DNA of 64,000 nucleotides from NCBI GenBank assembly GCA_010405405.1, contig MU004235.1, forward strand, positions 2,348,506 through 2,412,505. Direction: 5' to 3'. The DNA is from Microthyrium microscopicum (Eukaryota). Positions 1,198-62,523 of the stretch are shown here, in pieces (the first letter of the stretch is position 1; each line of letters opens with the position of its first letter). The notes beneath the pieces were generated by a model. That model ran no database searches. It had not been told where the DNA came from and saw nothing but the letters and a program-made list of their open reading frames with translations. The position numbers and the translations under genes were made by a program.

Positions 1198-1720
1198 TGC
1201 GGCTCGCGATTCACACACTGCACCGACGGAATAGAGACCTTGATGAAAGTGTAGTGGGAGGAAAAGTGCAAGGCTCTCGATGTGGAGTTTGAAGTGTGGA
1301 CGGCTACATCCGCGCCGCTGTAGTTATTGCACCATTCCTAAAACAGCGTAGCGTCGTTTTTGACTTGAAGGTTCACCCGCAATTGCTTTTCTACATTTCC
1401 TGTTCATAGGAATTGATTTAACATTGTTACATTTTCGGGATGCTCCATTTTATGACTCAGAAGAGGAATGTGTCTCTGCTTAGACTAATAGCGATACTCC
1501 CCTATCACTAATGTCATTCGAGAAGGTCGTAAAACCTAAGCATGCTTGGTTGGAGGATATAGGGAATTTGGGATGGAGGTAGCCGTGCGATTGATTGAGA
1601 AGTCTGTGTTTTTGCATTTTTAAAGAGAGCATGACTCCTTTGAATGACGAGACAGTTTGAGAGGTCAAGGACGTGATATGTTTGGAGTAGAGTAGATATC
1701 GAAGCAATCCTTGAGAGTTG

Positions 1721-3179: not shown

Positions 3180-3862
3180 CTTGATAATTGCGCGATGGCT
3201 GCGATATTCAGCAATAGCGCAAAAGGATCGAACTCGATGAACAGAGTCAAGGTTTGAGAGAATCTCGCGATGTGGATAACTTGAGGTTCGACGGCAAACT
3301 CCGAAACAAAGAAAGCACGCTACGCCGCTCCAAGACTAGGACCGTTTCTTCTTCGACTTGCGTCTGCTGAAGAACATCTAAAGCAGACAATTCATACTGA
3401 TTCATCAACCAAGGAAACAAGTGAAGGCTAAACTTTCTCGCTAATGAAAATCTCCAGACACTTTTCGCCATTTACGAGTTGACTGAAAAGCTGGGTCATG
3501 CGTAGTAGCGTAATACAAGGGCGAAATATGCACACACGAAGGCAGTTTCAGAGAGTCTAAAAGGTACAAGAGCTCGTCAAGATGTGTATTTACAGCAGCT
3601 CATAGACTGTGTTCGGTTATTTAATGAACTTGATAGCGACCCGACTGGGAGAAATATATATGAGTAAGAAATCTCGATATATCTCCGCAAGCTGTCGCAC
3701 TCCATAATCTCATTGCTAGCGCCACTAGCTTCAGCGCCGGATACTTTCGAGTCTATGACACTCATATGCCTCAACTGATATTGTAAAGCTGAGGCGTTTT
3801 GATGCGCGTCTCAGTCAAGTCCAGATTCCATCTTTGTAATACTACTACTTCAAAGCATTGTT

Positions 3863-5002
3863 ATGATGATACTGCCGAGATATGCATATACGACGCTCAT
3901 CACTCGTGCTTCATACCTACCTGGTGTTCTCATTCTCGCGCATACTTTAAGAAAGCATTCAAAACTTCCTCTTATCGTTGTATATACATCCTCTCTTTCC
4001 ATCGAGGCTTTACGGGCACTAGAACTCGAGTCCAAACTGCCCAGCGTAAACTTGATTTTACGAAAAGTAAATCCGTTAGTACCATCAGAGGAGGGAAAGT
4101 TGATTGCGGAGCGCTTTCGAGACACTTGGACAAAGTTAAGAGTATTTGAACTCTGGGAGTCAAATGATGGCAAGTCTTGGGACGGAATCTGTTATCTGGA
4201 CGCGGATATCGCCATCTACGGATTCATTGACGATGTATTCACAGCAGCGGGCCTGCCTCCTGTAGGCCAGAAAGTCGACGAGAACGATCAAAGACTAGAC
4301 CGGAACCGAGCGATACTTGCAGCAACGCCAATTTGCTGCTGCAACCTAGATGGCGATTCTTGGGCGCCAGCAGACTGGACGAAAGAGAATTGTCCATACA
4401 CCGCGGCAGTTCATCCGAGTAGCTTGAAGATGACACCAAGCTGGGAACAAGGAAAACCGGAACCTTGGAAATCACTCAATGGCGGCGTTTTCGTCTTTCA
4501 ACCTTCGAAAACGCTATGGGAAAGCATGATGGCTGCATTTGACCAGTGGGGAAGAGAAGGCAAGCTCGCAAAGATGAAGTTCCCGGACCAGGATTTCCTC
4601 AGCGAGTTCTGGCGTGGGAGATGGAAAAGCTTGAGCTGGCGATACAACGCATTGAAGACCATGCGCTACTGGCATCCGGATATCTGGAGAGACAATGAGA
4701 TCGTGGCATTGCATTATATTGTTGATAAGCCCTGGACGGCTAGGATTGGTGAAGATGGGTCTGCAGGGTATTTGGGGAGAGACGGCGAGACTCACAAATG
4801 GTGGTGGCGAGAATGGAGAGAATGGGAGAGCCTTAGAGAAAAATGGGGGCAACAAGAACTGCTTGACTTGGTTCGACGCGGAGCACACGTGGCTGGATAT
4901 GAGACCGGCTGTAGTAACAACGAAGATATGATGGCCATTGGAGCCAAGGTACAGGATTTAGCAAAAGGTTTGGGAGACTCCTCAAGACTAGCACTCCTAT
5001 AG
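3863..5002 (+). CDS. Glycosyltransferase family 8 (glycogenin/galactinol-synthase-like)
   Basis: AYTTLIT..SYLPGV, WTKLRVF, YLDAD (DxD), LNGGVFV, FPDQDFL and HYIVDKPW motifs. Confidence 0.9.
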   Translation: MMILPRYAYTTLITRASYLPGVLILAHTLRKHSKLPLIVVYTSSLSIEALRALELESKLPSVNLILRKVNPLVPSEEGKLIAERFRDTWTKLRVFELWESNDGKSWDGICYLDADIAIYGFIDDVFTAAGLPPVGQKVDENDQRLDRNRAILAATPICCCNLDGDSWAPADWTKENCPYTAAVHPSSLKMTPSWEQGKPEPWKSLNGGVFVFQPSKTLWESMMAAFDQWGREGKLAKMKFPDQDFLSEFWRGRWKSLSWRYNALKTMRYWHPDIWRDNEIVALHYIVDKPWTARIGEDGSAGYLGRDGETHKWWWREWREWESLREKWGQQELLDLVRRGAHVAGYETGCSNNEDMMAIGAKVQDLAKGLGDSSRLALL

Positions 5003-7653: not shown

Positions 7654-9582
7654 ATGGCGACCACTCTTCCTGCCACCGAGAACGCGGGCAATGACAAATC
7701 TGCGGACATGGACGAGAAGCGCGATGTTATGCAGGATTTCGATGTTGATGGACTCGGACTGCCACCAGATCCAGATGCTCATCTTACCCCAGAAGAAAGA
7801 GCAAAGATTGTTGGTAGTTGAAACATCGTTGACATTGTGGTACTAATTGTGTGACACAGGACAAGAAACTTCTTCGCAAGCTTGACTGGCTAATTATTCC
7901 TTGGGTGAGATCTTTTGTCACTGTTTGTACAATTGATTCGTACTGACTTAATTAGCTGTCATTTCTCTATCTTATCTCGTTTCTGGACAGAACAAATATT
8001 GGAAATGTACGTCGATTCCTCGCGAACCATAATTCTAAATCGTACTTTACCATTTTCGCGGAATGCTTGCCATCAGAGCATCGGACTAACGAATTGTCAG
8101 GCGCGTATCTATGGTCTCCAAACGGACTTGGGAAATATATCGGACTCGACATACAGCGCCGCTTTGACAGTATTCTTCATCAGCTATGCTCTATTAGAGC
8201 CGTTAACAAACATTCTTATGAAGCGATTGAGGCCATCGATATTCATCCCATCGATTATCTTGGCTTGGGGCATTTGCATGACTTGTGTAAGCTCTACATC
8301 AATGCATTTTGGATATCGCTTGTCCTGACGTGAGATAGATGGGTCTTGTGTCCAATGGAGGCGGTCTTATCGCCGTACGATTTTTCCTCGGTGTCGCTGA
8401 AGCTGGTCTTTTTCCTGGTGTGAACTACTATCTCTCCTGCTGGTATAAGAGATCAGAATTTGGAGCTCGCGCGGCAGTGTTCTTTAGCGCTGCTGCATTT
8501 GCTGGTTCTTTTGGAGGTCTTCTGGCCGCTGCTATTGCAAACATGCATGGTGTTGGTGGTAAACCTGGCTGGGCATGGATTTTCATTCTCGAGGTTAGTC
8601 CAGCTTCAAGATACTACACGGCTGCTGATATCGTATTAGGGTCTTTTCACCGTACTTGTTGGCATTGCTTCATATTGGATGGTCCATGACTTTCCAGACA
8701 ATGCAAAATTTCTGTCAGAGCCAGACCGCATTCGAGTGAGACGCCGCTTGGCCTTAGATGGCCAAGCCAGCGCTCATCACGAAGAGTTTGACATGCGCTT
8801 CTTCTGGGAATCTGTAAAGGACTGGAAGACATATGCCTTTGCAATCATCTACATGGGCACGGATGGAGCGCTCTACGCTTTCAGTTTATTTACTCCGACC
8901 ATCATCAAGCAACTTGGATACACTGCTACGAAAGCAAACTTGCTTTCTGTTCCACCATATGCAGCAGCCGCCATTATGACAATCTCAGTTGGCGTATTTG
9001 CGGACAGAACGAGACAGCGCGGTCTTTGCAATATTGTCATGGCCCTTGTTGGAATGATAGGGTTTTGTATGCTTATAGGATCACAAAAAGCTGGCGTCAA
9101 GTATGCTGGCACTTTCCTTGGAGCTATGGGTATTTATCCAACCATTGCCAACACCATCGCATGGTGCAGCAACAATGTTGAGGGTGTGTTCAAGCGAGGT
9201 GTCACTCTCGGGTTTGTAATTGGGTAAGTTGCTCTCAATATGGGGATGTAATTGATTGTCTAACAACAAATCTAGATGGGGAAACCTTAATGGTATTGTC
9301 AGCAGTAACATTTACCCCACAAGTAGCGCTCCACACTTCTATCCTGGCCACGGGACTGTGTTGGGATACCTCACTGTCTTCCTGTTTGGTGGCAGCATTG
9401 TCACTTCACTTCTTCTAAGGCAGGAGAACAAGAAGCGTATCAACGGCCAACGCGACCACTGGCTAGAGGGTAAAACACCGGAAGAATTGCGAACTAGGGG
9501 CGATAAGAGGTATGATTTACACCTTCACCTTATCTCGCCGTTGCTAACTCGTCATAGACCCGATTTCCAATATGTCGTCTAA
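7654..9582 (+). CDS. MFS transporter, anion:cation symporter/allantoate permease (Dal5/Tna1-like) family, multi-exon
   Basis: DKKLLRKLDWLIIPW, FLDRTNIGNA, RFFLGVAEAGLFPG, WYKRSE, GWAWIFILEG and LLSVPPY motifs spread over GT-AG exons. Confidence 0.9.
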
Positions 9583-9675
9583 TCTAATCACCAACAGTGC
9601 CAATATATGATTGTCTAAAGTTGTAGTATAAAAGCTCCGTAATACATATAAATCATAATAAGTTGAACTTCACCT

Positions 9676-10902
9676 TCACGTCTTCCAAGTGAGCGACCAC
9701 GTCTCCTCCCCCAACCTAAACGGCACAACATCCACACTGCCCTCCACCAAATCACCCACCTTCTCCCCTTTCCTCTTCAACACAATCTTCTCCTTAGACT
9801 CTTCTACACCATAGAACTTTCGCCCATGTTTCCCCAAAAATCCTTCCAGCACCTCCATCGTCACCTGCTCCTCTTTTAGCGTGCCCTCTTTGCAGGCTCT
9901 CTCTAGTGCATCGAGTACTGTGTGTGTCGCATACGGCTGCGTAAACACACCTGCTGCAGCTTTCTTGAGATTACTGCTTTTCGCGGCACGCGGGTGCGGC
10001 GCGCTGTCAGTACCTAGAAAGAACTTTGGGTTGTTGGAGACTGCGGCTTGCAGGATGGCGGTGCGGTCGGTGTCAGTTTTAGCAACGGGTTTGCAGAAGG
10101 CGTGGGCGTCACCGACGACATCGTCGATTGTTAGGAACAGATGATGCGCTATTTGCACGGTCAATATTCATGGAGCTGATTGGAGGGAGGAGGAGATTTA
10201 CCTGTGATGGTAGCTACGACAGTTGGGCCGCATTGCTTGACGGCCTCAATGGCCGGAGCACTAGTACAGTGCTCTAGAATGATACGTAGCTTTGGAAACT
10301 TTGCGTGGATGGAGAGAAGAGTGGGCAGGAATTTCTCTTCAGCGTTGAGGACGGTTATGCCGAGCTGTTTTGGGCATTCGCCGTGCAAGTTAAGGACCAA
10401 GTCCTGGTTCTGCATTTCTTCGAAGACGCGGTAGAATTGTTCATAGTCTACTACTCCTGAAGAGGAGTTCGTCGTCACACCTAGCCGTTGGTCAGTAGAT
10501 GATTCCTAGTGGGAGCCCGAGTCACTTGCCTGCTGGATACGATTTGACTCCAGTGATGCCAGATTCTTTGGCTTCTTTGATAGTCTCAGGAGTAATATCT
10601 TCGTGCAAGTAGAGAGACATCAAGAAGGTGACTTTGGGCTCCAGCGCTTCTAACTTGGCTTTGTAGTCCAGGCATTGCTTGACTTTGGTAATGGGTGGGA
10701 TGAGATTAGGCTTTCTACGGAGTTAGATGTTTTTTGGAATAATTCAAGCCGCACGGGTTCAACTAACCATCACATATACAACATTGACGCCTCCTTTTCT
10801 GATAGTGGGGACAACGGCATCGCACAGTTCATCTTGTCGCAGATGGACGTGGAAATCCGCCGTAGCTGGTAGCTCCAGCTTTGAGAGACTCTCTAGTATC
10901 AT
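9676..10902 (-). CDS. URA4: Dihydroorotase (homodimeric type), multi-exon
   Basis: LELPATADFHVHLRQ, KSYPAGVTTNS, LNLHGE, ILEHCT, CKPVAK and FFLGTDSAPH motifs. ATG at 10902. Confidence 0.93.
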
Positions 10903-12015
10903 AGTCGTCCTCCTGGTCCAGTTTTGTCTGTTTACGGCTTAGATATTGCTCTCAGGGGCCTGTAAGTTGTGTAGTGTGAGGAAGTTATTGGTCTGAAGTT
11001 GGAAGAAATATCAATTTTTGACTAGGTCTAGGAATCTTGAATTTCATTGGTTACAATTTACTAGCCTGAACGTGAAGTGTCTACGGAAGAGTATCTGATC
11101 AAAAACTTAACCTAATTATAAGCCTTCCTCACCTGTGACATTATTGGTAGTACCAAAGGAGAGAAACTATTCGAGGTAAGTCAGCGCAGTAAACTGGTTT
11201 TAATGGGTCGCTTGCAACTGCACAAGTGAAAGACGTACTTACTGCCTTATTCAATTGACGCTAGCATCTTACGAAGAAGTGAACACATGAATATTGTCAC
11301 ATCGAACTACTTTAATTACCGAAATTGCAAAGTGCGAGATGAGGTCAATAAAGCCATCTTTGGATCCTTCAAATCAGCCAACGGCTAAATTCCTACTGAC
11401 AATTCATTCACTTATGTATACCAAGAGTTCATATTTTTGAGTTAAAAAGGTCTGAACAAGGTATGATTTTCGAAAGGGTATCCAAAGGTAATGATTTCTA
11501 CCAATATGCTATCCAAAATAGCCGCTGTTGTGTCGCTTTGGCATTACTTACCGAAGTAACTTAGTGATTATTTTGTACATCGTGCTGACAGAAACCATTG
11601 CTTTTTAATCCCAATTCTGCGAGCAAGACATGTCTAGACCATCACAAAAAATAAAGATGAACGATATTGAACTTTGGCCTCTACTAAGTCCTATGATAGA
11701 CTAAGCAAATTCGCCGTTATCTCAAACATACAATGCTCCCTTCTCTCTAGTTTTGGAACTGTGCTTAGATGGTTGAAAACTTGAATTCTAGCCCAATCGT
11801 TGCATGCTTTGGGAAAGGACTGCAGCTACGAAGCGAGAAGGCGTTGCTTTGAGCAAGTCGTAGGCCTATCGCATAGTGAGAGGATTTGGGGCTGTGTGCA
11901 TATGCATATGCATAATGACTGTAGAGGCAGTGGGATGCGGGGACGTAAAAGTGATATAGAGCTCCGATTTTCAGCTCACGATTCGCAGCTGTGAGAGCTC
12001 TCTGGAACGTTGAAT

Positions 12016-46396: not shown

Positions 46397-47783
46397 ATGG
46401 CTACGAAAGTACTTCCCTTGCCGGTATTACCGGCTGACTGGACTGCGCCAAAGGATTTCAAAGTCGTTGGAGCTCTATCGAAGCCTGTAACTCGTGAAAT
46501 CGAGGCTGTCGGGCCTCATTTCCTAGCTCATGCACGAAGAAAGCGTTATAAGCGCACATTCTCTGAGGATGAGCGGATCCAGGCTGCCGAAAATGTGAAG
46601 AAGGTCGAAGATGATGATAGCGCTGAAACCAGCGAGCCTGAGGATCCTGTTATGCTGAGTCGGGATGCCAAAGACTGGAAGGTATGTTACTGCCCCTGAA
46701 TCTGCTCGTCCGACAGAATGCTAATGCACAAAGTAGAACCAAGACCACTACGCCGTCTTAGGTATCACCAAATACCGCTGGAAAGCCACCGAAGAGCAAA
46801 TCAAGCGCGCTCACCGCAAGAAGGTCCTCAAACATCACCCCGATAAGAAGACCGCCGCGGGCGGCACCGACGATGACAACTTCTTCAAGTGCATCCAAAA
46901 AGCCACCGAAGTGCTTCTCGACCCTGTCCGACGTCGTCAATATGACTCTGTCGATGAGGGCGCCAACCGCGACCCACCTTCCAAGAAAGAGAGCCAAAAG
47001 GGCAACTTTTATAAGCTATGGTCGCCCGTGTTCGCCGCAGAAGGTCGCTTCAGTACCAAGCAGCCAGTTCCCAAGTTTGGCGATGAGAACAGCAGCAAGG
47101 CTGAAGTCGAGGAATTTTACAACTTCTTCTACAAGTTCGACTCTTGGCGTACATTCGAGTACCTCGACGAGGATGTCCCAGATGACAACGAAAGCCGTGA
47201 CCAAAAACGTCACGTCGAGCGCAAAAATAACAACGCTCGTAAAAAGCGCAAGACTGAAGACTCCGCGCGTCTACGGAAACTGCTAGACACCGCCCTCGAT
47301 CTCGACGAACGCATCCGAAAATTCAAACAGGCAGAGCATGCCCAAAAGAACAAGCGCCGTCTCGACAAGGAAGCCGAACAAAAACGTGCTGCGGAAGAAG
47401 CAGCGAAAAAGAAGGAAGAGGACGCAAAGGCTGCTGCTGAGAAGGAGATTGCAGACAAGGCGGCCAAGGCGGACTCGAAGAAGGCGAAGGAGGCGGCGAA
47501 GAATGCTGTCAAGAAGAACAAACGTGTTATTCGTGCAGCTGTTAAGTATGCCAACTATTTCCATGCGGCGGGTGCAGATGCGAGTGCTAGTCAGATTGAT
47601 GCTGCGTTGAATGATGTTGATGCCATGATTGCCGCTAGTGAGCCCGAGAGTATTGCCGCTTTGACTGCGAGGCTGAATGGCAAGAAGGATCCAGCTGAGA
47701 TCAAGGCTATCTTTGCTGATGAGGCTAAGAAGCTGGTGGACGATGGGAAGGTTAAAGCGGGCGATTTGAAAACTTGCACTTGA
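46397..47783 (+). CDS. ZUO1: Zuotin (ribosome-associated J-domain chaperone), 2 exons
   Basis: EAVGPHFLAHARR, RDAKDWK|NQDHYAVLG, HHPDK J motif, FDSWRTFEYLDEDVPDD and KNAVKKNKR. Confidence 0.96.
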
Positions 47784-48063
47784 GCGGTTTTTGGTTACGA
47801 ATAGATCTTAGAATCTGCCAATACCATTTCTTCTACTAGTAGTTATAGCCCAGCTAAAGCACTGAATATATTCGAGGTCTATGAACCGTACTCAGAGGTC
47901 ATTGCAGTAGGTCGCTTGGCTGATGTGTTGTATGCACTGTCTATTCTATTAATAGAACGTACTGATATCTTCAGCCTGAGCCATATTACTGTTGCCGCTT
48001 TCTGCCATCCTATCTTCTCCCTTTTGTATCATTCTGCTAAGTTTGCAATCGTCCGTCGATGCC

Positions 48064-48930
48064 ATGTGGCTTCTCAACGCTTCCTCTTTGAAGCTCGAAT
48101 ACTTTGCCTTTGATGACGGCGAGGCTCCTCCTTACGGCATACTTTCTCACACTTGGGCGCATCCGTCCACTGAACTTACTTTTGAAGACTTGCATTCCAG
48201 AGGCCATGCTGCCTTCAGCAAAAAGAAAGAATCATACCAGAAACTGATCGGCTGCTGCTCAGTGGCTCAAAAGCACGGCTTGCAGTGGGTTTGGCTTGAC
48301 AACTGTTGCATCGATAAGTCAGATCACGCTCAGCTCAGCTATGCCGTTAGCTCGATTTTTCAGTGGTATCAAAGAGCAGAGATATGCATCACGTATCTCA
48401 GCGACGTACACGCTATGAAGGACTTCCATCGAGCGAGGTGGTTCACACGCGGATGGACCTTACAAGAGCTTCTAGCTCCCACGAGACTCGTTTTCTTCAA
48501 CCGACACTGGGAACCTCTCGGAACACGACAAGCCCTCGCCTCCTTGATTTCTCACATTACAACCATACACCCAGAGTACTTGATGCGTTCCTGGTCACCA
48601 TCTACCAACTCTTTGAGACTGTTGTACGATGCAGTTCTTACGCGCCAGACGACGAAGCCGGAGGACCAGGCTTATTGTCTTCTCGGTCTGCTCGGCATCT
48701 ATATGGAGGTTGACTACGGAGAGGGCCTGAATAGCGCGTTTGAAAGACTTTACGCAACTGTGGAGCAATACAGTGGGCGCATACCCTCTACGGCCGACGG
48801 TCATGAGTACAGTGGCTTGAGTTTTACTACTGCACAATACGGGGACTTTGTGAGGTACAAGAATGATCATGCAGCCGAGGAATATGAGGACGAGGACGAC
48901 GAGGAAGTTGAAGGTGGAAGACGACGATGA
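48064..48930 (+). CDS. Short HET-domain protein (HET-E/D-type HET subfamily) with an acidic tail and no NACHT domain
   Basis: MWLLN..SLKLEYF, PPYGILSHTW, WVWLDNCCIDKS, FQWYQRAEIC..YLSDV, WFTRGWTLQELLAP, TTKPEDQAYCLLGL and YGEG motifs. Confidence 0.88.
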   Translation: MWLLNASSLKLEYFAFDDGEAPPYGILSHTWAHPSTELTFEDLHSRGHAAFSKKKESYQKLIGCCSVAQKHGLQWVWLDNCCIDKSDHAQLSYAVSSIFQWYQRAEICITYLSDVHAMKDFHRARWFTRGWTLQELLAPTRLVFFNRHWEPLGTRQALASLISHITTIHPEYLMRSWSPSTNSLRLLYDAVLTRQTTKPEDQAYCLLGLLGIYMEVDYGEGLNSAFERLYATVEQYSGRIPSTADGHEYSGLSFTTAQYGDFVRYKNDHAAEEYEDEDDEEVEGGRRR

Positions 48931-50236: not shown

Positions 50237-51664
50237 TCATATATCCTTGCCATAATATCCTGAAGAGCCGAATAAAACTTCAGCCTTCACGCCATACTCA
50301 TGAGCTAAATACCCCAACTGCTGTCTGGCGTCCAGAGGCCAATCCATGTAGAATGGGTTCTCTGGATCTCCTACCAATGTAAATTGTATATCTCGAAGTG
50401 CGGAATTTGTCGCCGCGCCGTCTTGTAACCAGTCTGAGATTGAATCATAAAGTGCCCAGCCATCCCATTCGTCGAATTCTTGATCTGCCAGGTCGTCTGT
50501 CAAAACCAAAGTTTCAATATGATTCGGTACTACGAGTTTGAGAGGTAGTGCAGACTCTATTGACAAACTAGCAAATAGGAATTCTGGAGGAATTTTGAGA
50601 ACTGTTAGACGAGGAAGTGTTGTGAGACTTCGAAGCGTCCCATTCAGTCGAAGATTCGGGGCCTCTAGGTAACTTTCAATGTGCTGGACTTCAACTGCTA
50701 TCTCCAAATCCTGTAATGTATCTCTCACCTGTTCCAAAGCCGCACTCACTTTGTCGAGCTCAACCAACAGTGTATTTGTTGGCTGTATCGGATGCTTCCG
50801 TCTTCTCGTGTCGCAGAAGAACAGTGTCCATTTGAGATACTTTAGCTTTGGAGTCATACTTAGCAGACCAAGTAGGTGTGATTCCCGTACCAGGTGCAGA
50901 TCGAGCGATGTTAACATCGATGGATTAGACGTTGAAAGAATGGGCCAGTCTAAGCTTTCTGGATTGTCCAGAGAAATTGACAAACGAGTTATGCTTGATA
51001 AGCAAAAGAACGGTAGAGTATCTGCCGCTCCTTGGCCGCAAACACATCGGTACTGGGTAGCAAGTCGGCGGTATCTGCCGCGAATTTTATAGGTGACTTC
51101 GCTGAGATTTTGGAAAGCGGCCGGTCCACAGGTGCCTGGCACACACAGAGCGGCTCTCAGGAACAAACTAAGAACTTCACTCGTGAAGTATCTGGTACTG
51201 ATGACGAGATGCTTCAGACCATGAAGTTTCAGAAGTAGTAATGCAAGAAAAGCATCTCCTTCACCACCGAATAGCTGCTGAATCCACTGCTGGATAAAGG
51301 GAAGTCCAGACCCGCTGATGGTCTGGACCGCAAGAGAAAGATTGAACCCATCAACTGGAATTGATATAGGTATATGCTCTTCATGTAACCAGTCAAGAGA
51401 GTTGTCAGAGGAGAATTCCAAGCTTGAAATACAATTAGCCAACGCTGGTTTGCGAAGAACATTGTTCAGCAGAGAAATAACGCGTCGCCTTGTGTTTCTC
51501 GACCACATTAATTTTACTTTCGAGTAAAGAAAAGGTTCCGCGGTTTTGTTGAACGCCTTATCGACGAGACACAATGCATGGAAGTCTGCCTAAGACGTTA
51601 TATAACCACATATCAAATATGTGATATCGTATCCAAGACGGTCTTGCAAAGAAACGCGTTCCAT
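50237..51664 (-). pseudogene. F-box/LRR-like protein with a premature TAG at codon 25 (51590-51592)
   Basis: Reads MERVSLQDRLGYDITYLICGYITS*ADFHALCLVDKAFNKTAEPFLYSKV. The F-box-like N-terminus is in frame with ORF 50237-51574, and LRR-like segments follow (LKHLVI, ITRLSI, LTSLDL, LKYLKW, LQDLEI, LTVLKI). Confidence 0.75.
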
Positions 51665-52099
51665 CTTAAAGAGTTTAGTCCGTGGTGCATGATAGACAAT
51701 CAATCCACTACCGCAGAGAATTTTCAGGATGCAACATTAATTAGCCTCTTTTAGTTTAGTACAATAATAATTTTCATTAATTATAGATCATAGTACTACT
51801 CTTTATAATCATATATTAGTTTTACAAAAGGGACAATTATATCCTATAACTAGTACACTAAATTTAGTAACTTACTTAGCTATACTAAATTACTAGTAAA
51901 AGGGTAATATAAAGAGAAAAGCTATAGAAAAAGCTACTAATAAATTAAAGACTTTATAGCTTTAATTAAACTATAAATTTAACTATATATATAGAAAATA
52001 TATATAAATTACTAGTAAAAGAACTTAATTAACTAAAGATAATATAGTAAGAACTAATTCTAAGGCAAAATCTATTAATAAATACTAAAAAGGCTAACC

Positions 52100-54040
52100 T
52101 TTAAGTAAGGCAAAGTTGCTTTATTAAATATAAAAAAACTACTAAAGAATTTAGTAGTTAGAATAGTAAGATTAACTACTCTACCTTAAAAAAAAGAGCT
52201 TTTAAGATATATAATATTACTATATAGACTAAAATCCTAAAATAGATAATTTATAAATACTACGTCTTTTAGCTATATAAAAAGTAAATTTTATATTTAT
52301 ATCTAAAGCTTAGATACTTTAAAGATCTAGTAACTAGGCAATTATAATAATATATAACGTTTAAAGAAGTAAGTAACTACTTTTTAGTTAATAAATCTAT
52401 AATCTCTTATTAGTAGAAAAAGTAAGATAAGACTAAATTTATTACTAATAACTAGAGGAAGATAGAACTTAATATAGAACGAGAATACTTTCTAGACTTA
52501 AAATCTATAATCTATTACTAGTTTATTATTTAGCTTATAGAGAACTAAGAGATTTTATTTAGCTAGTTCTTTAGAAAGGCTACTTAATAATAGCCTCTAG
52601 TATATACTTCCCTTATAGTATTTAAATAAGCTATTCCTTAAAGACTTTACTTTTTAAGAAGCTAGCTTATAAGGTTTTAAAAACGCTATTAGATTTCTTA
52701 TTAAAAAATAACCTATATAGGCTAAAACTTTCCTTAAGATTAGAAATAATTTATTAATTATTTTATTTCTTTTTATTAGTAATACTATACTAGGTTAGTT
52801 ACTTCTATAAGCTATAAGGTAGAGATATATACCTAAATTCCTACTTATTTTATTATAAATAGTAATAAAACTCCTTACGTATATAAAACTATACCTAGCT
52901 ATACCTATTACTTAGTAGGATTAAATAATATATCTTATACTATTTCTAAAAGTAAATAAGAGAAACAATTAATAATAGTATATTTAAGAGTCTTTACTAA
53001 CGAGAAGATAGTTATAAAACTATTAATTATATTCTATAAATTACCTACTAAATATTACGGTTAAAACGAAGTTACTAAGAGATTTCTTTATAATAAATAC
53101 GTTATTATAAAGTTTAATAAAACTACCTAGATAAATTTATTCCTAATTATTCTATAGATTAAAGATTAATAAGTTCTTTATATAGATTCTAAGTAGTATT
53201 AACTTAAGTAAGAATAATATTACTAATAAGCTTAAGGTAAGAATACTTTTCTTTAAATTTATTTTTATTCTAACTTATCCTTTAGAACGTAGTATAAGCT
53301 TTAATTTTTAAGATAATAAAGCTTATACCTTTACTATTACTAAACTTATAAAGTTTAATAGTAGTCCTACTAGCTAAATTTACCTACTAATATAGCCTAT
53401 ACCTCCTTAGCTAATATTAAAGGTTATTATTAACTCTATAGCATTTTATATAACTAAAGAAGTTAAGGCTTACTATTATATATATAGTATTATTCTTATA
53501 GTTATTATCTCTAGACTAATAACTAAGATCTAACCTTTAGATATTAGTATTAACTAAGTTATTAAGAAGTACCTTTAGGAATATTAAGATAAAATTACTT
53601 TTAAAGCGTATCTAAATAAGGATTTTTATAATCTTATTATAAGTAAAAAACGTATTATTTTAACTAAAATAGTTACTTATATATAGAAAAAGGCTTATAC
53701 TTAGCAAACTTACTAAAAATATAATATTATAAAGTATTCTTTTACTTATATTAAAATTAATATTACTCTAGATAGCTTAGAAGATTATCTTATATTAGTA
53801 AAAGGAATAGCTACTAGTAATATTAATTTATTAGATTAGAGATTAATACTACTACTAAGAAATAATTCTAATAATTTAAATCCTTCTAAGAAAATAAAGA
53901 TTAAAAAAGAAAAAAGTATTCCTTTATTTTATGCTAACTAGGCTAATAAAGAAAAAGTTAATAATTACTTAAATTAATAAGAAAAAGAAGCTAATTCTTC
54001 TTCTAATTCTAAATCTAACTCTAAGTATATAGAATTAAAG
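52100..54040 (+). pseudogene. RIP-destroyed pogo/Tigger-type DDE_1 transposase with CENP-B-like HTH (boundaries approximate)
   Basis: Reverting TA to CA/TG restores ..SWL.RF.KRY.IS, N-G-D-E-T-P (52858-52875), FNETAWM, ID-S-V-A-F-H (about 53429-53449), IQPLDIGIN (53528-53554) and LDGSEDHLI.VKG. Frames are consistent across a 49-bp GTAAG..CTAAC..TAG intron at 53237-53285. Confidence 0.75.
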
Positions 54041-56647
54041 CCTTTATAATATATAGATTCTTCTATAGCTATAGCTCTAGTTTAGACTCTATTTTAGCTT
54101 CTATTTTAGCCTCTATTTTAGACTACTTATCCTTAATCTCTACTTCTATCTTAATTTTATTCTTCGTCTTAAAATTAATATTAGACTATTTATACTTAAT
54201 CTATTTTTACTTTTCTAACTTAGTATAAAGCTTAATTAACGAATTAAACTTAGAAAGAGTAGTACTAATCTATTCCTTAATATTAGAGTTAAGTAAACTT
54301 TAACTATTAGAATAGACTTTCTCTCCTTATAAATCACTATCCTCCTATTTAGGTTTTAAAAAAAAGCTATAGTAAGAAAAAAGATAATTAGTCTTAGAAA
54401 CTTAATCCTTCTTAGTAATAAAATCCTTAACTAGTAAGTTCTATTAATTAGGTAAAGTTTAATCTAAATCTTTAGCCTATTATAAAAGTTATTTAGAAGA
54501 GAGAACTAAGAGGACCTTATAAAAAGAAGGATCCTTAAGCTATAAAGATGCCTATAATAAAGAAGTTAATTATAAAGAAGCCTATTCTAAAAAAGTAATT
54601 AATAAAAGTAAAGAAATAGATTTTATATACTAATAACTACTACTAAAAGTTAGAGTTCTCTATACGTTAAGTCTTTTATCTTATCTTTATAAAGTATAAG
54701 AATCTTTTTTAGTTATCTATAGAATAACTTATATATTTACCTTTAAAGCTAGTTTAATTCGTTACTAATTATATTAATAAACCTATCTATAGTATACTAT
54801 ATCTCTATTTATAAAAGAAATTATAGAAAGTAATATATTATCTTAAAATAAACTTCTTTTATTAATAGTAGCTTTAAGAACTAAGTAATACTCTTCTCTA
54901 ACTAAGAAATTATATAAGAAGATATAATTATAAGTTATATCTAGTATATACTATTAATAAATTATTTTTTTAGTATAGCTAAGTATACCTATAAATAGTA
55001 CTATAAGATCCTATAGTCTATATTTTATAGTTTAACTACTAGTAAATCTATAAAGAATAATAGAAGATAGAGAGGCTAGGAAAGAAAAAGGAAAGAAAGA
55101 GCTAAGAAATAAGGTAAAGCTAAAGAGAATAGCTAAAGAAGAATAGCTAAAGAGGAATAGCTAAAGGAAAGCTAGGAGGAAATAGCTAAGGAAAAAGTAA
55201 AGATAAGAAATCTATAAAAAAGAAAGATATCTAAAAGCTATTTAAGATAATAATTAATAGTAAATCTAGTCTAGAATATAAAGCTTTAGAAATTAAAGGA
55301 GCATATATAATAATCTAGCATTTAAGAATCTAAGCCTAACCTAGATAGGCTAGTTACTTTAAGAGAGCTAATTAATAGTCTAGAAAATCTCTAGAGTTAA
55401 TAAACTCTACTAAAATCTAACTTTATCTACTATTACTAGCAATAGAAATTAGTTATATAGTTATTTTTATTAACTTTTTAACTTACTAAGGATATAAGAA
55501 TAATTTAAAGTAAGCATAGTATAACTATTCTTAAAGATATAAGTTAGCTTAAGCTATCTTAGGCTTTTATCTTATTCTATAAAGACTTATACCTTAGCCT
55601 ATTATACTAAATAAATTATTATTTAAGAAGAGCTTATTAAATTAATTCTAGAGTTAGTAAATATCTTAGTATACTTATATATAAGTCTTATTTATTATAA
55701 TACTCCTAAGTTAATATATATTATAGGTCCTAGATAGATTAAAGTAATAATTTATACCTAACTTATAAAAGAATTTAAAGTAGCAAAGTTTAAGAGTAAA
55801 AAGAAATAAAGGTACTTATAGCCTCTAAAATAATAATTATATAGTATTTATTACTAAGCTTAATAAAAAGGGCCTTTATATTATTAACTTCTACGCGTAA
55901 GACCTTAAGATTAGCTTTATTACTACTAATATAAAGTACTACGTAGTAGTAATAAATACTAAATAGATATATTATTAAAAGACTAGATATCTTTTTTCTC
56001 TAAGTATAATACTTCTCTTTTAGAAAGTAGCTTACCCTTATATTAAAACTAGCTTTACTTTATAGAAGATAAGTTAATAAGGAGCTTACTACTCTCCTAC
56101 TTAATCTATAAAAGCTTTTATATTAAAGATTAATATATTTACTAATAGGCTAAAAGCTATATAGACTAGTTCTTCTAATAATAATAATATATATTTATTA
56201 TCTATATATTTTTATTAAAAGGTACTTAATATAGAAAGTATATATCTAGTAACTAATAAGATAAATAAAAATAGATAATTAAACTATATTTCTTAAAAAA
56301 TAGGCTACTCTAATCCTTATTACTATTTTAGTAAAGATAAGTAAGATATTCTTATAAAAGCTATAAATAACGTCTAGTAACTACTTTAGCTCTAATTTAT
56401 TATCTTTTATAGTAAATATATATAAATTAGATTAATATACTACTTTATATACTATGCTGCCTTAATAACGCTTTTTATTTAATTTTAGCTTAGTATTATA
56501 TTCTATTAGTTTCTCTTATTTAGAAATATTTACCTATATTTTAATATAAAATAAATATTACCTAACATAAATAGAAAGGACTAAAATATAATTTATTAAA
56601 GTTCTACTTTATAAAATATATAAAGTTTATCTAAAACAAAGTATTTA

Positions 56648-57154
56648 CTATCTAAGTAGAACTAAACTACTTTAAACTATCTAAGTAGAACTAAACTACT
56701 TTAACCTTCTAATAGTTTTACTACTTNNNNNNNNNNNNNNNNNNNNNNNNNNNNNNNNNNNNNNNNNNNNNNNNNNNNNNNNNNNNNNNNNNNNNNNNNN
56801 NNNNNNNNNNNNNNNNNNNNNNNNNNNNNNNNNNNNNNNNNNNNNNNNNNNNNNNNNNNNNNNNNNCCTTCTAGCAGTTTTACTACTTACTTAGGTAGAC
56901 TAACTATCTAAGTAGAACTAAACTACTTTAAACTATCTAAGTAGAACTAAACTACTTTAACTTTCTAGTAGTTTTACTACTTACTTAGATAGACTAACTA
57001 TCTAAGTAGAACTAAACTACTTTAAACTATCTAAGTAGAACTAAACTACTTTAATCTTCTAGCAGTTTTACTACTTGCTTAGGTAGACTAACTATCTAAG
57101 TAGAACTAAACTACTTTATAAAACCTTCTAGTAGTTTTACTACTTACTTAGGTA
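56648..57154. repeat. Tandem array of a 94-bp unit (two copies of a roughly 29-bp subunit plus an imperfect inverted copy), interrupted by an assembly gap
   Basis: ctatctaagtagaactaaactactttaa repeated. Units start at 56867, 56961 and 57055. Confidence 0.9.
56727..56866. other. Assembly gap (140 N)
   Basis: Run of N inside the 94-bp tandem array. Confidence 1.
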
Positions 57155-57700
57155 GTAAATTAATATTTATTATATTATCTAATAATATAATAAAAAAAAT
57201 AGAATAAAGATAGATTAATTTAATAAAGAGAAAATAACTTTTTAATATAAAAAGTATTTTCTTAAAAATATATAAATATTCGTTTCTAAGCTACCCTAAA
57301 AGAGTAAACTAAGAAATATATTATATTCTTTACTAAAGACTTTAAAAGAGTTTTAGAAGTAATCTAGTAACTAATATTATTAGGCTAGCTAGATAGTAGA
57401 TTCTTATCTACTTCTTATATAAAGCTTTATAATTATACTAACTATAAGCTATATATAAAATCTAACTTAATAATAAACTATTCTAAACTTAGGTCTAATT
57501 TATAGTAACTAGTCTAGCTAATGCTAGATTTAGTAGAAATATATCTAATCTCTAAAAATTTAAGACTTAGTAAATATATTTCTAAACTATAGCTAAGAAT
57601 AGAATTTACTTAAGAATTAACTAGAATTACTATAAGAATTAGTAGGTATAATTACTAATCTTATAGAATCTAAGCTAAATTCTTATCTTTTTTATAAAGT

Positions 57701-58930
57701 AGCTAAAAATACAATTCCTTAAAGCCCTTATAGCTTAGAAATTAGCTATAGCAAAATACTAAAATGTGCTCCTACTACTATACATTCTACTATAAAGTAG
57801 CTTAGGACTTAAGAGCCTTAAGTCTATAAAGCTAGATTAATCTAGAACTAGCTTTAAATCTAGCTCTTTATATCTAAAAGGCTAGATTATCCTATAGTAG
57901 CTACTTAAGCTATTTAAATCTATAGTATTTAATACGTAATATTAAGATCTAGGAATTACTAGATCTTAATATTATAATTACGTACTATTACGTACTCTAT
58001 TACGTAATAATTACGTACTAGATTATATTATCTAACCCTTTATATTTTTAAAGAGCTAGATTATTTTATAGTAGCTAAAAATAATACATTTTTAGATAGT
58101 AGCTATTTTAGCTACTAATAGCTAATATTAGCTATTAGTAACTAATATTATAGCTACTATTAGCCTAAAATCCCCTTTTTAAAAAAGCTAAAAATACAAT
58201 CCCCTAAAGCCTTTATAGCTTAGGGATTAGCTATAGCGAAATACTAAAATATGCCCCTACTACTATACATTCTACTACAAAGTAGCTTAGGACTTAAGAG
58301 CCTTAAGTCCGTAGAGCTAGACCAATTTAGGACTAGCTTTAAATCTAGCCCTTTATATTCAAAGGGCTAGATTATCTTATAGTAGCTACTTAAGCTATTT
58401 AAATCTATAGTATTTAATACATAATATTAAGATCTAGGAATTACTAGATCTTAATATTGTAATTACGTACTATGTTACGTAATAGTTACGTGCTAGATTA
58501 CGTAATTTAGCCCTTTATATTTAAAGAGCTAGATTATCCTATAGTAGCTACTTAAGCTATTTAAATCTATAGTATTTAATACGTAATATTAAGATCTAAG
58601 AATTACTAGATCTTAATATTATAATTACGTACTAGATTACGTACTAGATTACGTTATCTAACTCTTTATATTTTTAAAGAGCTAGATTATCTTATAGTAG
58701 CTAAAAATAATACATTTTTAGATAGTAGCTATTTTAATTACTAATAGCTAATATTAGCTATTAGTAGCTAATATTATAACTAATATTAGGGGGACGCCCC
58801 TAATCCTCTTTATTAAATAGCTAAAAATACTATTTTTTAAAGCCCTTACAGCTTAGGGATTAGCTATAGCGAAATACTAAAATATGCCCCTACTACTATA
58901 TATTTTACTACGAACTAGCTTAGGATTTAA
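57701..58930. repeat. Long tandem repeat (copies start at about 57701, 58186 and 58819) with internal hairpins and palindromes
   Basis: agctaaaaatacaat..cctaaagccc.tatagcttag..attagctatagc.aaatactaaaat.tgc.cctactac recurs three times. It contains taatattaagatctag-gaatta-ctagatcttaatatta and the palindrome tactaatagctaatattagctattagta. Confidence 0.9.
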
Positions 58931-59369
58931 TACGCGTTATTTCCGTGTATATTATCTCCTTTAATTAGCGCCTATTTGTCCCTTTTAATTAGCATTGTCT
59001 CCTTCGTTAGTATTATCCCCTTCGCTCGTAGTACTATCCCTTTGTATCTTGCGCTATAGAAAGGACATATCTACCCGCAGGATCCCGCAGCCATTCCGTT
59101 CCCTTTTAGGTTAGATTGAGTCCGCTAGTACTAAAAAACGCCTCGCTCTTTAAGTGCACCTAAATATATAATTCTTAGTTGCTCTTAATAAAAATATATA
59201 TATATTAAAGCTGCTATTCTATATTACTAATCCTGAAATTTTAGTGTTAATTAAATAAGATTTAGGTAAGATACTTTATAGTAACGAACTTTAAAGATTT
59301 TAAGATCTAGATAGCTACGTGAGCTCTAATTTTCGTGTTTTTAGATCTCTAACACTAATCTTAGCGCTT

Positions 59370-61660
59370 ATAATAGAAGAAACTAACTTTACCTTTACTG
59401 TTACAACTATAGCTATAGATAGGCCCTTACCTAAAGAAGTAGCTCCTTCTAATCCTTAGATGTAGACAAACTTAATCGTCTTATTTCTAAATAAAAAGGA
59501 TGAAGAAATGCAATCTACCTAAGTACCTAAAGATTTAGTAATCTATGCTCCCTTGTCTAACGATATTAATCCGTAAGTACTTTATATCGCTAAGAAGGGT
59601 TAGAAGATAGTAGTTGTAGGGCGTGATTAGTCTAAATATACTACTCTACTTTAAGAAGACTACTAAAAGATACGCGTTCTTTATAAACCTTTTATAATTA
59701 TTAATTCCTTTATGTGTTTTATAAATATATACTTTATTAATACTAGAAACAATCTTATTAATATTAGACCGCTTCTAGAGGACTGTATATTATAACATTT
59801 TAAAGAGCTCTTTAAGTGATTTAATATACCGTATATCTTCTTTACTAAGCTGTAGAAAGATGAAGACTTTGAAATAATTATAATAAATACTAATTTTTAT
59901 ATATAAGAATAATTCTAAAGTAGTCCTCTTGATTCTTTACTAATTAAACCTATTTTAGTGCTTAAAATCTAAATATTTGTTACAATGTTAATTTATATAG
60001 GCTCTAAGCATTTAGTAGATATTAATATTATCTAGAGAACTAATACTTTAAAATCTTAATATGCAATCTAAATGTTTATAAGCAAAACACGATAGTAGAT
60101 TATTAAAAAATATATATACCTAAGTCTTCTAGATTATAGTAATCTAAATCTAATACCTGCGCAAAGAAAAGAAGTAGTTTTTATAAAGGTAGAGCCCTTA
60201 TTCTTAACTCTCTACGCTTGCTTTAAGGAATCCGTATATCCTACTAATTACGTCGCTATTAATAAGATAATAATATAATTTAAGGGTTAGTCCGTAGCTA
60301 TAATATAGCTAAAGGATAAACTAATTAATTACGAGTATAAAATACTAGGAATTAGCTTTTAGGGATATCTTTAAGACTTCCTTTATACTGTACCTAGTAG
60401 ATTCTTAGTAACTAACGAGATGCAAGATATTTCTACTTATAGGTATTCTTAGATACCTAAAAGCATAGATCCTAATTAGTATAAACTGTTAAATCTAAGC
60501 TTGCGTATAGTTCTTTAGATAGCGCTTACTTTATTGTTTAAAGAGCAAAAATAGTATATCTTTATAAATAACTTCTTTAGTAATATATGCCTGTTTGAAA
60601 TCTTATAGAATTATAATATCGGCGCTATAGAAACTGCGCGTCCTACCTCTATAGAGTATCCTTTATAACATATAGATTTAAAGAAGGTAGGAAACACGTA
60701 GGATTAGAGTAGAATTAAAGCTTTAGTAGTTTGTAGAGTACTTAGTATTATTTAGTACGATTGAGTACTTGTTTGATTCTAAACGACCTGTTTTGATACT
60801 AAAGAGACTACAATTGCTATACGTTATAAACTATATGCTAGTACTAAGAGAGATAAAGACTAGATCTAACGAATTTAGGGTAATAAAGGCATTAAGAAGC
60901 TCTTATAGCTTGCCGTCGTAATTCTGTATAATATTTATATAGGTATAATTGATTAGGCTAACTAGCGGCGCTCTTACTATACATACTATTATATAGGTAA
61001 GTAATTTTAATATTCTTTTAGATTAGAAGGACGATTTTATTATTTTAACTCTAATTGTTTAAAAACCTATACTATTTAATTCGTTTTATTAAGAGTTATC
61101 TCCTTATATAAGTTTTAGGTATTAAAAATTAGTTACTAATTTTCTATTAGCTTATTAACGTTACTATTATAAATGTATATATTTTAGTATTATAAACACT
61201 TTAGGCTAAGCTTCCTAGAGAAGCTTAAGATATATATAGATATACTAACTATTTATATTCTTATATATTTTATAACTATTTAGTATAGTGTTTGTACCTA
61301 AAGGCATTTAATTAGATACACGAAGTTAAGAGGATTATAATAATATTTAATTTACGTAAAAATGTTGTATTGCTATTAGTTAGGCAAATAATTAGTATAA
61401 AACGTTAATATAGAGGTGAATCGCTACCTATAGATTAATTCTTCTTAGGACTTTACGTAATAGTATATCTACCTTATAAATAGCGACAATACTACTAGTA
61501 TTATACGTAGAAGAAGCTTAATACTAGTTGTACTAATAAAGCAAGAAAGATAGGATTTTGCTGTTTTTAGTATAGTAATAATTTACCTCTTTATTACTAG
61601 TGCTTTTATGAATTCTATTAGGATTATAAGTACAGAGATCTCTAGCGTTTAAGGTTAAAT
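59370..61660 (+). pseudogene. RIP-degraded piggyBac-type transposase (DDE_Tnp_1_7-like) with C-terminal Cys-rich domain
   Basis: One frame gives VAI(D)(E)(M)(M)I.FKG(R)S...KDK(P)I...YK at 60252, IF(M)(D)NFFSN..LFEIL..YNIGA..TAR at 60558, and LYN..(M)G.ID.A(D).RR.YY at about 60925-60980. After a GTAAGT donor at about 60997 comes CCF.(C)..NLPL(C)..CF.EF(H) at about 61555-61620. Confidence 0.8.
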
Positions 61661-62523
61661 ACTAATAATTTTGGTAGGAATAGGCTCTAATCCTAGAATG
61701 TAGATTCCGTAGTGAGAGATTAGGCTGAAATCTGTTCATAGAACTAGACGGGATAGAGCCCTTAGTTCAACTTTATAATACTAGAATACGTGCATGTAGA
61801 TAGGATTATTTAGGCGTAGGAATTTAAGAAGTGCTTTACGTTGAATAGGATTTAGCGGAGCCCTAGTAGGTAGAGCCCCATAATCTAGATCTACTTAAAG
61901 GGCGTAAACCATTTCCTATTTGGGCCTTAGCGTATAGCTATAACGCCAATATGTCCTTGTTGAGATACGAAGGGATAGCTGTTTAAGTGTTTAATAGGCT
62001 TAATATAAACGCTAAGACAAAGGGAACAATTCGTAGTAAGCTAGAGCCCCTAAAATTAGTGACCCTATGGTACGCTACACCCTCTAAAATTAGTTAGCGC
62101 TATGTAGGGTCCCCTAAAATTAGTAAGTAGTAAGCACCTGTTTTGGGGTCCCAAAAAGGCTTAATTAATGTTGCATCCTGAAAATTCTCTGCGGTAACTG
62201 GTTGGGATAGAGCTTGGATCCAGTAATTGAATCAACCAGGAAACTTGTATATCTCAAAACAGCTTGACAATCCACCTAGGTAGGTACTTAGAAGGTATGC
62301 TAATCTTGTATTATGTGTGTCACTGTTTGAAAGGTGAGGATCAGATGAGGAAGAAGTGGGAGTCATGATTTATTCAACGGCATGACCATTTATTTCGTCC
62401 ATCGGTTGTCGCTATTGGCCGAGGCTACTAGAGGATCCATCGCTGAGGCCCAGGAGGTTCAGGATATGATTGGAATTTTGGCTCCATTCATACAACTGGA
62501 AACTTGCTATATTTGTTCTTCTC

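Follow-up and report, generated by a model that had tools for sequence, protein, structure and literature searches.

A 10.5-kb two-transposase block in Microthyrium microscopicum is probably a nest of two RIP-inactivated DNA transposons

Does a single transposon carry two transposases from different superfamilies, or has one element landed inside another? This question is raised by a block of about 10.5 kb in a stretch of 64,000 nucleotides of the Microthyrium microscopicum genome (the window), in which a pogo-type and a piggyBac-type transposase lie between one pair of terminal inverted repeats. The original prediction considered both a composite and a nested structure and preferred a stable composite because no piggyBac ends had been seen. 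According to our analysis, the nested alternative is the better supported of the two: with a probability of roughly 0.6, the block consists of two dead cut-and-paste DNA transposons of a filamentous ascomycete, a piggyBac-like unit nested inside a pogo-type element. Both were inactivated by repeat-induced point mutation (RIP), a fungal defence that changes C to T and G to A and whose signature is typical of filamentous ascomycetes. Transposon nests of this kind are ordinary, and the block probably does not represent a new transposon with two engines.

The outer block comprises 10,488 bp (51709-62196; 7,545 bp without the nested unit) and is, as predicted, enclosed by perfect inverted repeats with TA at either end, the two ends being identical over 35 nt counted from the outermost TA (TA plus 33 nt). 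An inverted-repeat search gave arms of 44 nt with 91% identity (51709-51752 and 62153-62196). The flanks read ...caatccac-TA on the left and TA-actggttg on the right, and a duplication of TAA is compatible with the right side only. When the window was searched on both strands in purine/pyrimidine space with up to four mismatches, the 32-nt outer repeat was located at two places only, the two outer ends. Neither a second copy of the outer repeat nor the ends of a compact pogo element emerged convincingly from transition-blind searches; in gapped purine/pyrimidine alignments of the ends, all matches but the outer repeat stayed within shuffle noise, and the exact 25-nt core of the repeat had no match in metagenome contigs and none in prokaryote genome contigs. 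The GC content is 0.18-0.29 within the block and 0.43-0.52 around it, and the empty ORF track remarked upon earlier is borne out by the absence of any open frame of at least 100 amino acids between 51589 and 62693. A HET-domain gene is located near the block. Of the words of the region 50300-56700, a fraction of 0.46-0.70 was contained in four sequencing runs of one sample and 0.21 in one run of another organism, values which have no bearing on presence, absence or an empty site. The features of the block are compiled in Table 1.

Table 1. Features of the block, with positions given in the window
Feature	Position	Strand	Description
Left end of host element	51709..51752	+	TA, perfect 33-nt inverted repeat, then imperfect extension to about 44 nt
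pogo-type transposase relic	52330..53990	+	HTH_Tnp_Tc5-like motif 52618-52710; DDE_1 core with D1 52864, D2 53432, D3 53540
pogo D1 motif	52858-52875		read as NSNKTP; aspartate codon AAT (52864)
pogo D2 motif	53429-53449		read as INSIAFY; aspartate codon AAC (53432)
pogo D3 motif	53531-53542		read as *PLD; aspartate codon GAT (53540)
RIP-mutated host DNA	53991..56612	.	heavy RIP mutation; coding relic not recognisable
Tandem array	56613..57155	.	29-nt / 94-nt units; includes 140-N assembly gap at 56727-56866
485-nt repeat, about 2.5 copies	57684..58930	.	162-nt sub-repeats and short palindromes; intermediate RIP load
Nested piggyBac-like unit, 2,943 bp	59035..61977	+	inverted ends beginning TATCCCTT at 59035 (+) and 61977 (-), TA outermost on each
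piggyBac-type (PF13843) transposase relic	59751..61630	+	triad codons 60261, 60567, 60759; frame change between 60983 and 61106
C-terminal Cys-rich tail relic	61400..61630	+	several Cys positions read Tyr, as G>A in TGT/TGC would give
Right end of host element	61978..62196	-	14-nt subterminal motif three times (62047, 62081, 62111), then 33-nt repeat and TA

The pogo-type relic was recognised with a RIP-aware profile, an affine-gap model built from 136 PF03184 proteins, mostly of the Tigger type. The profile scored 109.8 on the + strand in a colinear match (columns 26-397 of 540) that was obtained with our own aligner only. The - strand reached 42, the reversed profile 50 and 46, and four natural control stretches 29-41; 60 dinucleotide shuffles gave 47.0±8.5 (maximum 69.8) and 40 triplet shuffles 54.8±8.4 (maximum 76.9). 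The D2-D3 spacing is 35 residues, with D1 and D2 read as N and D3 as D, and the three catalytic motifs which had been proposed at 52.1-54.0 kb coincide with D1, D2 and D3 of the RIP-aware alignment. In contrast to the profile, plain Pfam searches of the pogo half with stops translated as X identified no family in six whole frames, 12 pieces of 800 amino acids or 66 tiles of 200 amino acids; the sole row of the tile scan, Fijivirus_P9-2, was a chance match (E 8.3) and was discarded. Similarly, none of 11 single pogo proteins, when aligned under a log-odds RIP-aware model, exceeded the reversed-protein controls, among them P0151, which is identical (100%) to the product of the pogo gene at metagenome locus L029. 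This log-odds model had replaced a first RIP-aware scorer based on the best ancestral residue, which aligned everything with 10-15 frameshifts. We infer that the pogo relic and the outer repeats are parts of one element, whose own transposase the relic would represent.

A phmmer search with the piggyBac-like part against 1.84 billion representatives returned 172 proteins at E<=1e-3 (best 5.5e-27), and PF13843 was present in all 11 of the top matches that were scanned (E 5e-31 to 6.6e-64). The RIP-aware piggyBac profile scored 616.8 over columns 49-581 of 586, compared to 58.2±6.4 (maximum 77.1) for 30 shuffles, while PF13843 on the raw stop-as-X translation remained just below its cut-off (22.0 vs 22.4 bits, E 1.1e-4). 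The codons aligned with the predicted piggyBac triad were located, as was the Cys-rich tail, both having been placed at 59.4-61.7 kb. The triad codons read AAT (N), AAT (N) and GAT (D); both N codons are what G>A would make of GAT, suggesting an ancestral DDD state. The tail scored 62.1 in RIP-aware alignment, as compared to 26.1±4.3 (maximum 41.5) in 100 shuffles, and zf-Tnp_2 (PF13842) was identified in three of the 11 scanned relatives at E <= 1.4e-4, with P0021 alone passing the 24-bit cut-off. The RIP-aware profile alignments place both relics on the + strand, as had been stated. With 41 stop codons in 366 aligned codons of the pogo relic and 51 in 531 of the piggyBac relic, neither transposase is able to work now.

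The piggyBac-like unit possesses ends of its own. At 59035 the sequence reads TA followed by TCCCTTTGTATCT, with an inverted partner at 61977 (form TA-TCCCTT.GTATCT), and all 16 positions after TATCC agree between 59035 (+) and 61977 (-), one of them being a C/T transition. This match was equalled by 4 of 2000 shuffle pairs in a motif-anchored test, and the pair was also listed by the inverted-repeat search (59034-59049 / 61963-61978, 94%). Only two + strand copies of TATCCC are present within the element (59014 and 59035), and three lie on the - strand (60362, 61750 and 61972). When the whole element was scanned against the right end without anchor or gaps, the pair fell within noise (15.8, shuffles 16.2-19.2); it owes its significance to the motif-anchored test and to its resemblance to related elements. 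The left inner terminus is blurred by more TATCCC-like motifs just outside 59035 (58953-59033), and beyond the inner ends on both sides there is a 19-nt inverted match (at about 58993 and 62031). The unit is flanked by GTAC-TA-TCCC and GGGA-TA-GCTG, without the TTAA duplication of the piggyBac superfamily; this TA may have arisen by duplication or may belong to the repeat. The clean pair of piggyBac ends that could not be found in the original prediction had been sought in the TTAA/CCC form, and the ends identified here are of the TA type. Once these inner ends had been found, the idea that the outer repeats are those of the piggyBac-like element, the left end of which would have been split by 7 kb of inserted DNA, was dropped; in addition, RIP ends abruptly at the inner border of the left outer repeat.

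Ends of the same type delimit free-standing relatives. Among 51 metagenome loci examined, 13 have clear ends and represent free-standing units of 2,035-2,939 bp with inverted repeats of 15-156 nt, which begin with TATCC, TATCT or TATTC (TA-T(A/C)TCC-type ends), and in none of the 13 does TTAA adjoin the repeat. A comparable element has been described from Tuber indicum, where Ti-tr1 encodes a PF13843 transposase and has 52-bp inverted repeats and TA duplications (PMC3864998). According to that description, Ti-tr1 and the unit in the window share a piggyBac-family transposase, long inverted repeats, TA instead of TTAA, an ascomycete host and a compact size; unlike Ti-tr1, the copy in the window is RIP-dead (51 stops) and resides inside another transposon. 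As the inner ends are present and are of the type found in the free-standing relatives and in Ti-tr1, the nested structure is supported and the composite is not.

The mutation load along the block adds a further line of evidence. TA/AT is 1.45-2.6 inside the block, and (CA+TG)/(AC+GT) is 0.02-0.6 inside as compared to 0.9-1.8 outside. The load is unequal: CA+TG dinucleotides number 3-5 per kb in the host interior (52330-57683), 15 in the intermediate region 57684-58930, 38-41 in each of three thirds of the insert, 78 in the 219 bp of the host right end, which is much less mutated than the left end, and 141-151 in the flanks. There is no sharp step at 59035, since the adjacent region is intermediate. 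The roughly tenfold difference between host interior and insert argues that the parts of the block were not always duplicated together.

We therefore favour the following course of events, of which the order and the copy numbers are reconstructed from these patterns. The outer element, with TA and 33-nt perfect inverted repeats, would have been a pogo-type (Fot-like, DD35D) transposon whose transposase relic lies about 0.6 kb from the left end. A compact piggyBac-like element of 2.9 kb, a putative member of an ascomycete clade with long inverted repeats and TA, not TTAA, flanks, would then have landed at a TA close to the right end of the host, with 219 bp remaining beyond it. RIP would have destroyed both elements afterwards. 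The long host arm would have been hit near saturation, presumably owing to a higher copy number of the host family, the insert about ten times less, and the 219-bp host arm cut off by the insert least of all.

A double nesting, in which the outer repeats come from a third, non-autonomous element into which the pogo relic, too, had inserted as a unit of about 3.1 kb, appears rather unlikely. An exact 17-nt inverted match (51873-51889 / 54969-54985), beginning with TA, would enclose the pogo relic, but such a match was reached in 9 of 400 shuffles, the direct-orientation control gives 16, and the match has no extension in either direction. The start of the outer repeat, TA-CCGC, loosely resembles the ends of the piggyBac relatives at loci L008 (TA-CCCC) and L063 (TA-TCCGC), and a host of 7.5 kb without the piggyBac-like unit is too long for a usual pogo element, for which 1.2-5.2 kb is reported (PMC7386202). 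Against this, transition-blind searches revealed no other internal inverted pairs, and the RIP load is equal inside and outside the putative 3.1-kb unit.

It is quite improbable that the 10.5-kb unit with both transposases forms a true composite family moved as one by the outer repeats, as the original prediction preferred. In its favour, the outer repeats match perfectly for 33 nt and are each bordered by TA, both relics share one strand, and locus L029 has a pogo gene and, 7.6 kb downstream of it in the same orientation, a piggyBac relative. However, the piggyBac module in the window retains its own ends, the L029 pogo gene lies outside the 79-nt inverted repeats which, by repeat search and reading of the sequence, bound the piggyBac relative at 9442-11792, any match to the pogo profile was obtained at only two of 80 loci, and the 13 clear-ended relatives, at 2.0-2.9 kb, offer no room for a second transposase. 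The non-uniform mutation load likewise speaks against a composite. As the outer repeats are perfect and have TA on both sides, the whole block could have been mobilised in trans after nesting, and there is a slight chance that, once the piggyBac-like element had landed, the pogo-type host was moved in this way and the block spread as a new composite family with both layers targeting TA. Finally, a misjoin of two loci or of two host-family copies at the 140-N gap, so that the halves never formed one element, is highly improbable: the gap does separate the two halves, and the DNA in which it sits is repetitive, of low complexity and not to be bridged by short reads, but the 29-nt unit and, at 70% identity, the 94-nt unit of the tandem array occur on both of its sides, and the outer repeats are identical, TA-flanked and adjoin unique non-RIP flanks of normal composition.

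The nest of two transposons has counterparts among known systems. The pogo superfamily is described as having TA flanks; in most Fot elements the inverted repeats measure 40-60 nt, and the triad of Fot/Passer is DD35D (PMC7386202). With Fot and Fot-like elements (Fot1, Pot2, Tan1, Flipper), as portrayed there, the host shares TA flanks, an inverted repeat of about 44 nt in the 40-60 nt class and an HTH_Tnp_Tc5-like motif followed by a DDE_1 core with 35 residues between D2 and D3, but it differs in its length and in about 200 nt of extra DNA between D1 and D2 (PMC7386202); its placement in Fot rests on a profile mostly of Tigger-type proteins, and it may belong to another pogo family. Transposons within transposons, RIP-mutated and with no open frame left, are also described for the AT-rich mosaics of Leptosphaeria maculans; in contrast to these, the window harbours a single 10.5-kb island in gene-dense DNA, and both layers are class II (PMC3105345). 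Teratorn of medaka, which is described as uniting a piggyBac-like transposon with a herpesvirus, likewise has a piggyBac-family transposase in a far larger mobile unit, yet it moves as a unit by its piggyBac ends, whereas the piggyBac-like part in the window is an inner passenger with its own ends (PMC10175614).

The locus matters chiefly as a correction: an apparent giant two-transposase element is, in the reading favoured here, a nested insertion of a common kind within an island mutated by RIP. It illustrates that a codon-level aligner which models C>T/G>A decay finds transposase relics that are invisible to Pfam scans of raw translations, and that the relative order of events in a transposon nest may be read from unequal RIP load. 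Moreover, ascomycete piggyBac-family elements with TA instead of TTAA flanks, previously noted once, in Tuber, appear to be widespread, and searches requiring TTAA would therefore miss their ends.

The single AT-rich island of the window, at 51.7-62.2 kb, is a nest of transposons inactivated by RIP, in which a piggyBac-like unit of a TA-flanked ascomycete clade resides within a TA-flanked host that is probably of the pogo type. RIP, repeat-induced point mutation, is a fungal defence which converts C to T and G to A. The GC content of the island is 0.18-0.29 compared to 0.43-0.52 around it, and its dinucleotides carry the RIP signature, with TA/AT at 1.45-2.6 and (CA+TG)/(AC+GT) at 0.02-0.6 within the island versus 0.9-1.8 outside. 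The edges are sharp: both ends share the same 35 nt, starting with the outermost TA, corresponding to the predicted TA plus a perfect 33-nt inverted repeat, and the likeness continues imperfectly to about 44 nt. After purine/pyrimidine recoding, which is blind to the transitions produced by RIP, a 32-nt outer repeat occurs at just two sites in the 64-kb window, both of which are the ends of the element. Open frames of at least 100 aa are absent between 51589 and 62693. The neighbouring genes are ordinary, and the start of a 450-aa frame is about 120 bp away from the left end, indicating an insertion just upstream of a likely gene. Together with the RIP signature, the HET domain encoded nearby is indicative of a filamentous ascomycete. 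A GGGATA hexamer, the piggyBac-clade terminal motif reversed, is located in unique flanking DNA 8 nt beyond the outer right end; as the window contains 24 such hexamers with 26 expected, this occurrence is probably due to chance.

Positions of the features discussed (window coordinates unless a metagenome locus is named)
Feature	Position	Strand	Remark
Zuotin-type DnaJ gene	46737-47783		neighbour
HET-domain gene	47980-48930		neighbour
450-aa open frame	50237-51589	-	no Pfam match at E<=1e-3
Element	51709-62196		
Pogo relic, aligned part	52330-53990	+	
Pogo D1	52864	+	AAT
Extra DNA between D1 and D2	53228-53429		
Pogo D2	53432	+	AAC
Pogo D3	53540	+	GAT
Tandem array, left	56613-57155		
Tandem array, right	57684-58930		
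Four TATCCC-like motifs	58953-59033		
PiggyBac relic	59751-61630	+	
Frame change of piggyBac relic	between 60983 and 61106		
Cys-rich tail	61400-61630	+	
Single TATCCC-like motif	~62031		
GGGATA hexamer	62204-62209		
L029 pogo-type gene	36-1835		
L029 piggyBac relative	9442-11792		compact element
L045 pogo-type gene or fragment	260-2117		
L045 piggyBac relative	3792-4820		
L062 piggyBac relative	504-3209		compact element
L071 piggyBac relative	953-3018		compact element

Frame +3 of 59400-61700, translated with stops as X, matches PF13843 at E 1.1e-4 (22.0 bits, just below the cut-off of 22.4), and a phmmer search with the piggyBac part against 1.84 billion representatives returned 172 proteins at E<=1e-3, of which 37 have E<=1e-10 and the top one reaches 5.5e-27. 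PF13843 is present in all 11 top matches that were scanned, three of which also match zf-Tnp_2 (E<=1.4e-4), one above the cut-off of that family. The region was further read with a codon-level aligner written for RIP-decayed DNA, in which the log-odds of an observed codon versus a protein or profile column is summed over every ancestral codon convertible to it by C>T or G>A; reversed proteins give a baseline of about 40 half-bits. Against a profile of 57 full-length phmmer matches (586 columns, affine gaps), the piggyBac relic scores 616.8, compared to 58.2±6.4 (maximum 77.1) in 30 dinucleotide shuffles. It spans columns 49-581, with 51 stops in 531 codons and one frame change, and its catalytic positions read AAT, AAT and GAT. 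The Cys-rich tail, in which several Cys positions read as Tyr, scores 62.1 versus 26.1±4.3 (maximum 41.5) in 100 shuffles.

In the pogo half, plain Pfam searches identified no transposase family, whether run on the six frames in full, on 12 pieces (800 aa each) or on 66 tiles (200 aa each). References were obtained from 80 metagenome loci holding relatives of the window's PF13843 transposase: one of their 62 non-piggyBac frames of at least 250 aa, located in L029, combines DDE_1 with HTH_Tnp_Tc5, and two protein searches starting from it led to 136 PF03184 proteins, mostly of the Tigger type. Individual pogo proteins gave no significant RIP-aware score on this half. The pogo profile (540 columns, affine gaps) scores 109.8 on the + strand, compared to 42 on the - strand, 50 and 46 with the profile reversed, 47.0±8.5 (maximum 69.8) in 60 dinucleotide shuffles, 54.8±8.4 (maximum 76.9) in 40 triplet shuffles and 29-41 on four natural control stretches. 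The alignment runs colinearly through columns 26-397, nearly all in one frame up to column 270, and includes 41 stops in 366 codons. Its path places the catalytic positions D1, D2 and D3 on all three motifs of the original prediction. The observation behind that prediction is confirmed in full, the pogo part being based on our own aligner and controls. D2 and D3 are separated by 35 residues. Compared to the Tigger-type profile, about 200 nt of additional DNA with a frame change separate D1 from D2; an intron, a stretch specific to the family or a small insertion could account for this. The outer repeats may be those of the pogo relic: the TA flanks, the repeat length of about 44 nt and the DD35D arrangement fit the features of pogo elements as outlined in PMC7386202. 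Without the insert, the host still measures 7.5 kb. It harbors two tandem arrays, together about 1.8 kb, with units of 485/162 nt with short palindromes in the right array and of 29/94 nt in the left, which may have arisen by amplification of subterminal repeats or constitute a distinct satellite. The pogo relic could itself be a nested 3.1-kb unit, which a weak 17-nt inverted match would mark.

The piggyBac relic is flanked, at the expected distances, by the end motif of its relatives. The left inner end reads TA followed by TCCCTTTGTATCT (start 59035) and the right one, on the other strand, TA followed by TCCCTTCGTATCT (start 61977), delimiting an insert of 2,943 bp. The two agree at 16 of 16 positions, one being a C/T transition, which was equalled in only 4 of 2000 shuffle pairs, and share another 10-mer about 20 nt further in. 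An inverted-repeat search recovers the pair (59034-59049/61963-61978), and TATCCC occurs on the + strand of the element only at 59014 and 59035; in an unanchored scan the pair falls within noise (15.8 versus shuffle maxima of 16.2-19.2). Four more T(A/G)TC(C/T)CCTT-like motifs, spaced by about 20 nt, lie just outside the left inner end and a similar one outside the right; these could be subterminal binding sites, be left over from an older insertion or have arisen by chance. A 19-nt inverted match is also located just outside both inner ends. Thus, the true left terminus could be a few tens of nucleotides further out. The original prediction had favored a composite, with both transposases in one moving unit, because no clean piggyBac ends had been found. 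Such ends do exist, although not of the TTAA/CCC type, and as the piggyBac part has termini of its own, a composite appears unlikely. The outer repeat core found no match in the two collections scanned, metagenome contigs and genome contigs. A misjoin at the N gap is argued against by the position of the gap inside a tandem array found on both of its sides.

An even RIP load would be expected of a block whose parts had been duplicated together throughout. CA+TG per kb amounts to 141-151 in the flanks, 3-5 in the host interior (52330-57683), 15 in the right tandem array, 38-41 in each third of the insert and 78 in the 219-bp right end of the host; inward of the outer repeats, the GC content is 0.22 in the leftmost and 0.41 in the rightmost 175 nt. 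RIP requires a minimum length of duplicated DNA. For the nested insertion, it might be hypothesized that the host family was higher in copy number or underwent more sexual cycles, that the insert was already in place and severed a right host arm too short for good RIP recognition, and that the insert went through its own, milder RIP history.

For 51 of the 80 loci, the surroundings of the transposase match were searched for inverted repeats. Thirteen (L022, L025, L027, L028, L029, L039, L044, L047, L056, L062, L063, L071 and L074) have repeats of 15-156 nt starting with TATCC, TATCT or TATTC (e.g. TA-TCCC, TA-TCCG), which enclose units of 2,035-2,939 bp; TTAA is found beside the repeat in none of these 13. 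Repeats starting with ATCC occur at four loci, no repeat was found at 11, and 23 gave short or low-complexity matches only, which were left uninterpreted. The L029 arms were confirmed by a separate inverted-repeat search (79 nt, 94%) and by sequence reading. In two of the 80 loci, L029 and L045, a pogo-type (DDE_1) gene or fragment is located 2-8 kb from the piggyBac relative; that of L029 lies outside the repeats of the piggyBac unit, and at L045 no inverted repeats were found. Elements of the piggyBac family are also known from Pezizomycotina, as described in PMC5751038, and a survey of 157 piggyBac-like elements states that TTAA is the rule and exceptions are rare (PMC5381638). One PF13843 element, at the mating-type locus of Tuber indicum, is described in PMC3864998 as having 52-bp inverted repeats and TA rather than TTAA. 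The nest is ordinary biology, both of its parts belonging to known kinds. The relatives at the 13 loci, TA-flanked and devoid of TTAA, match this single published case, suggesting that a whole TA-flanked clade of fungal PF13843 elements exists.
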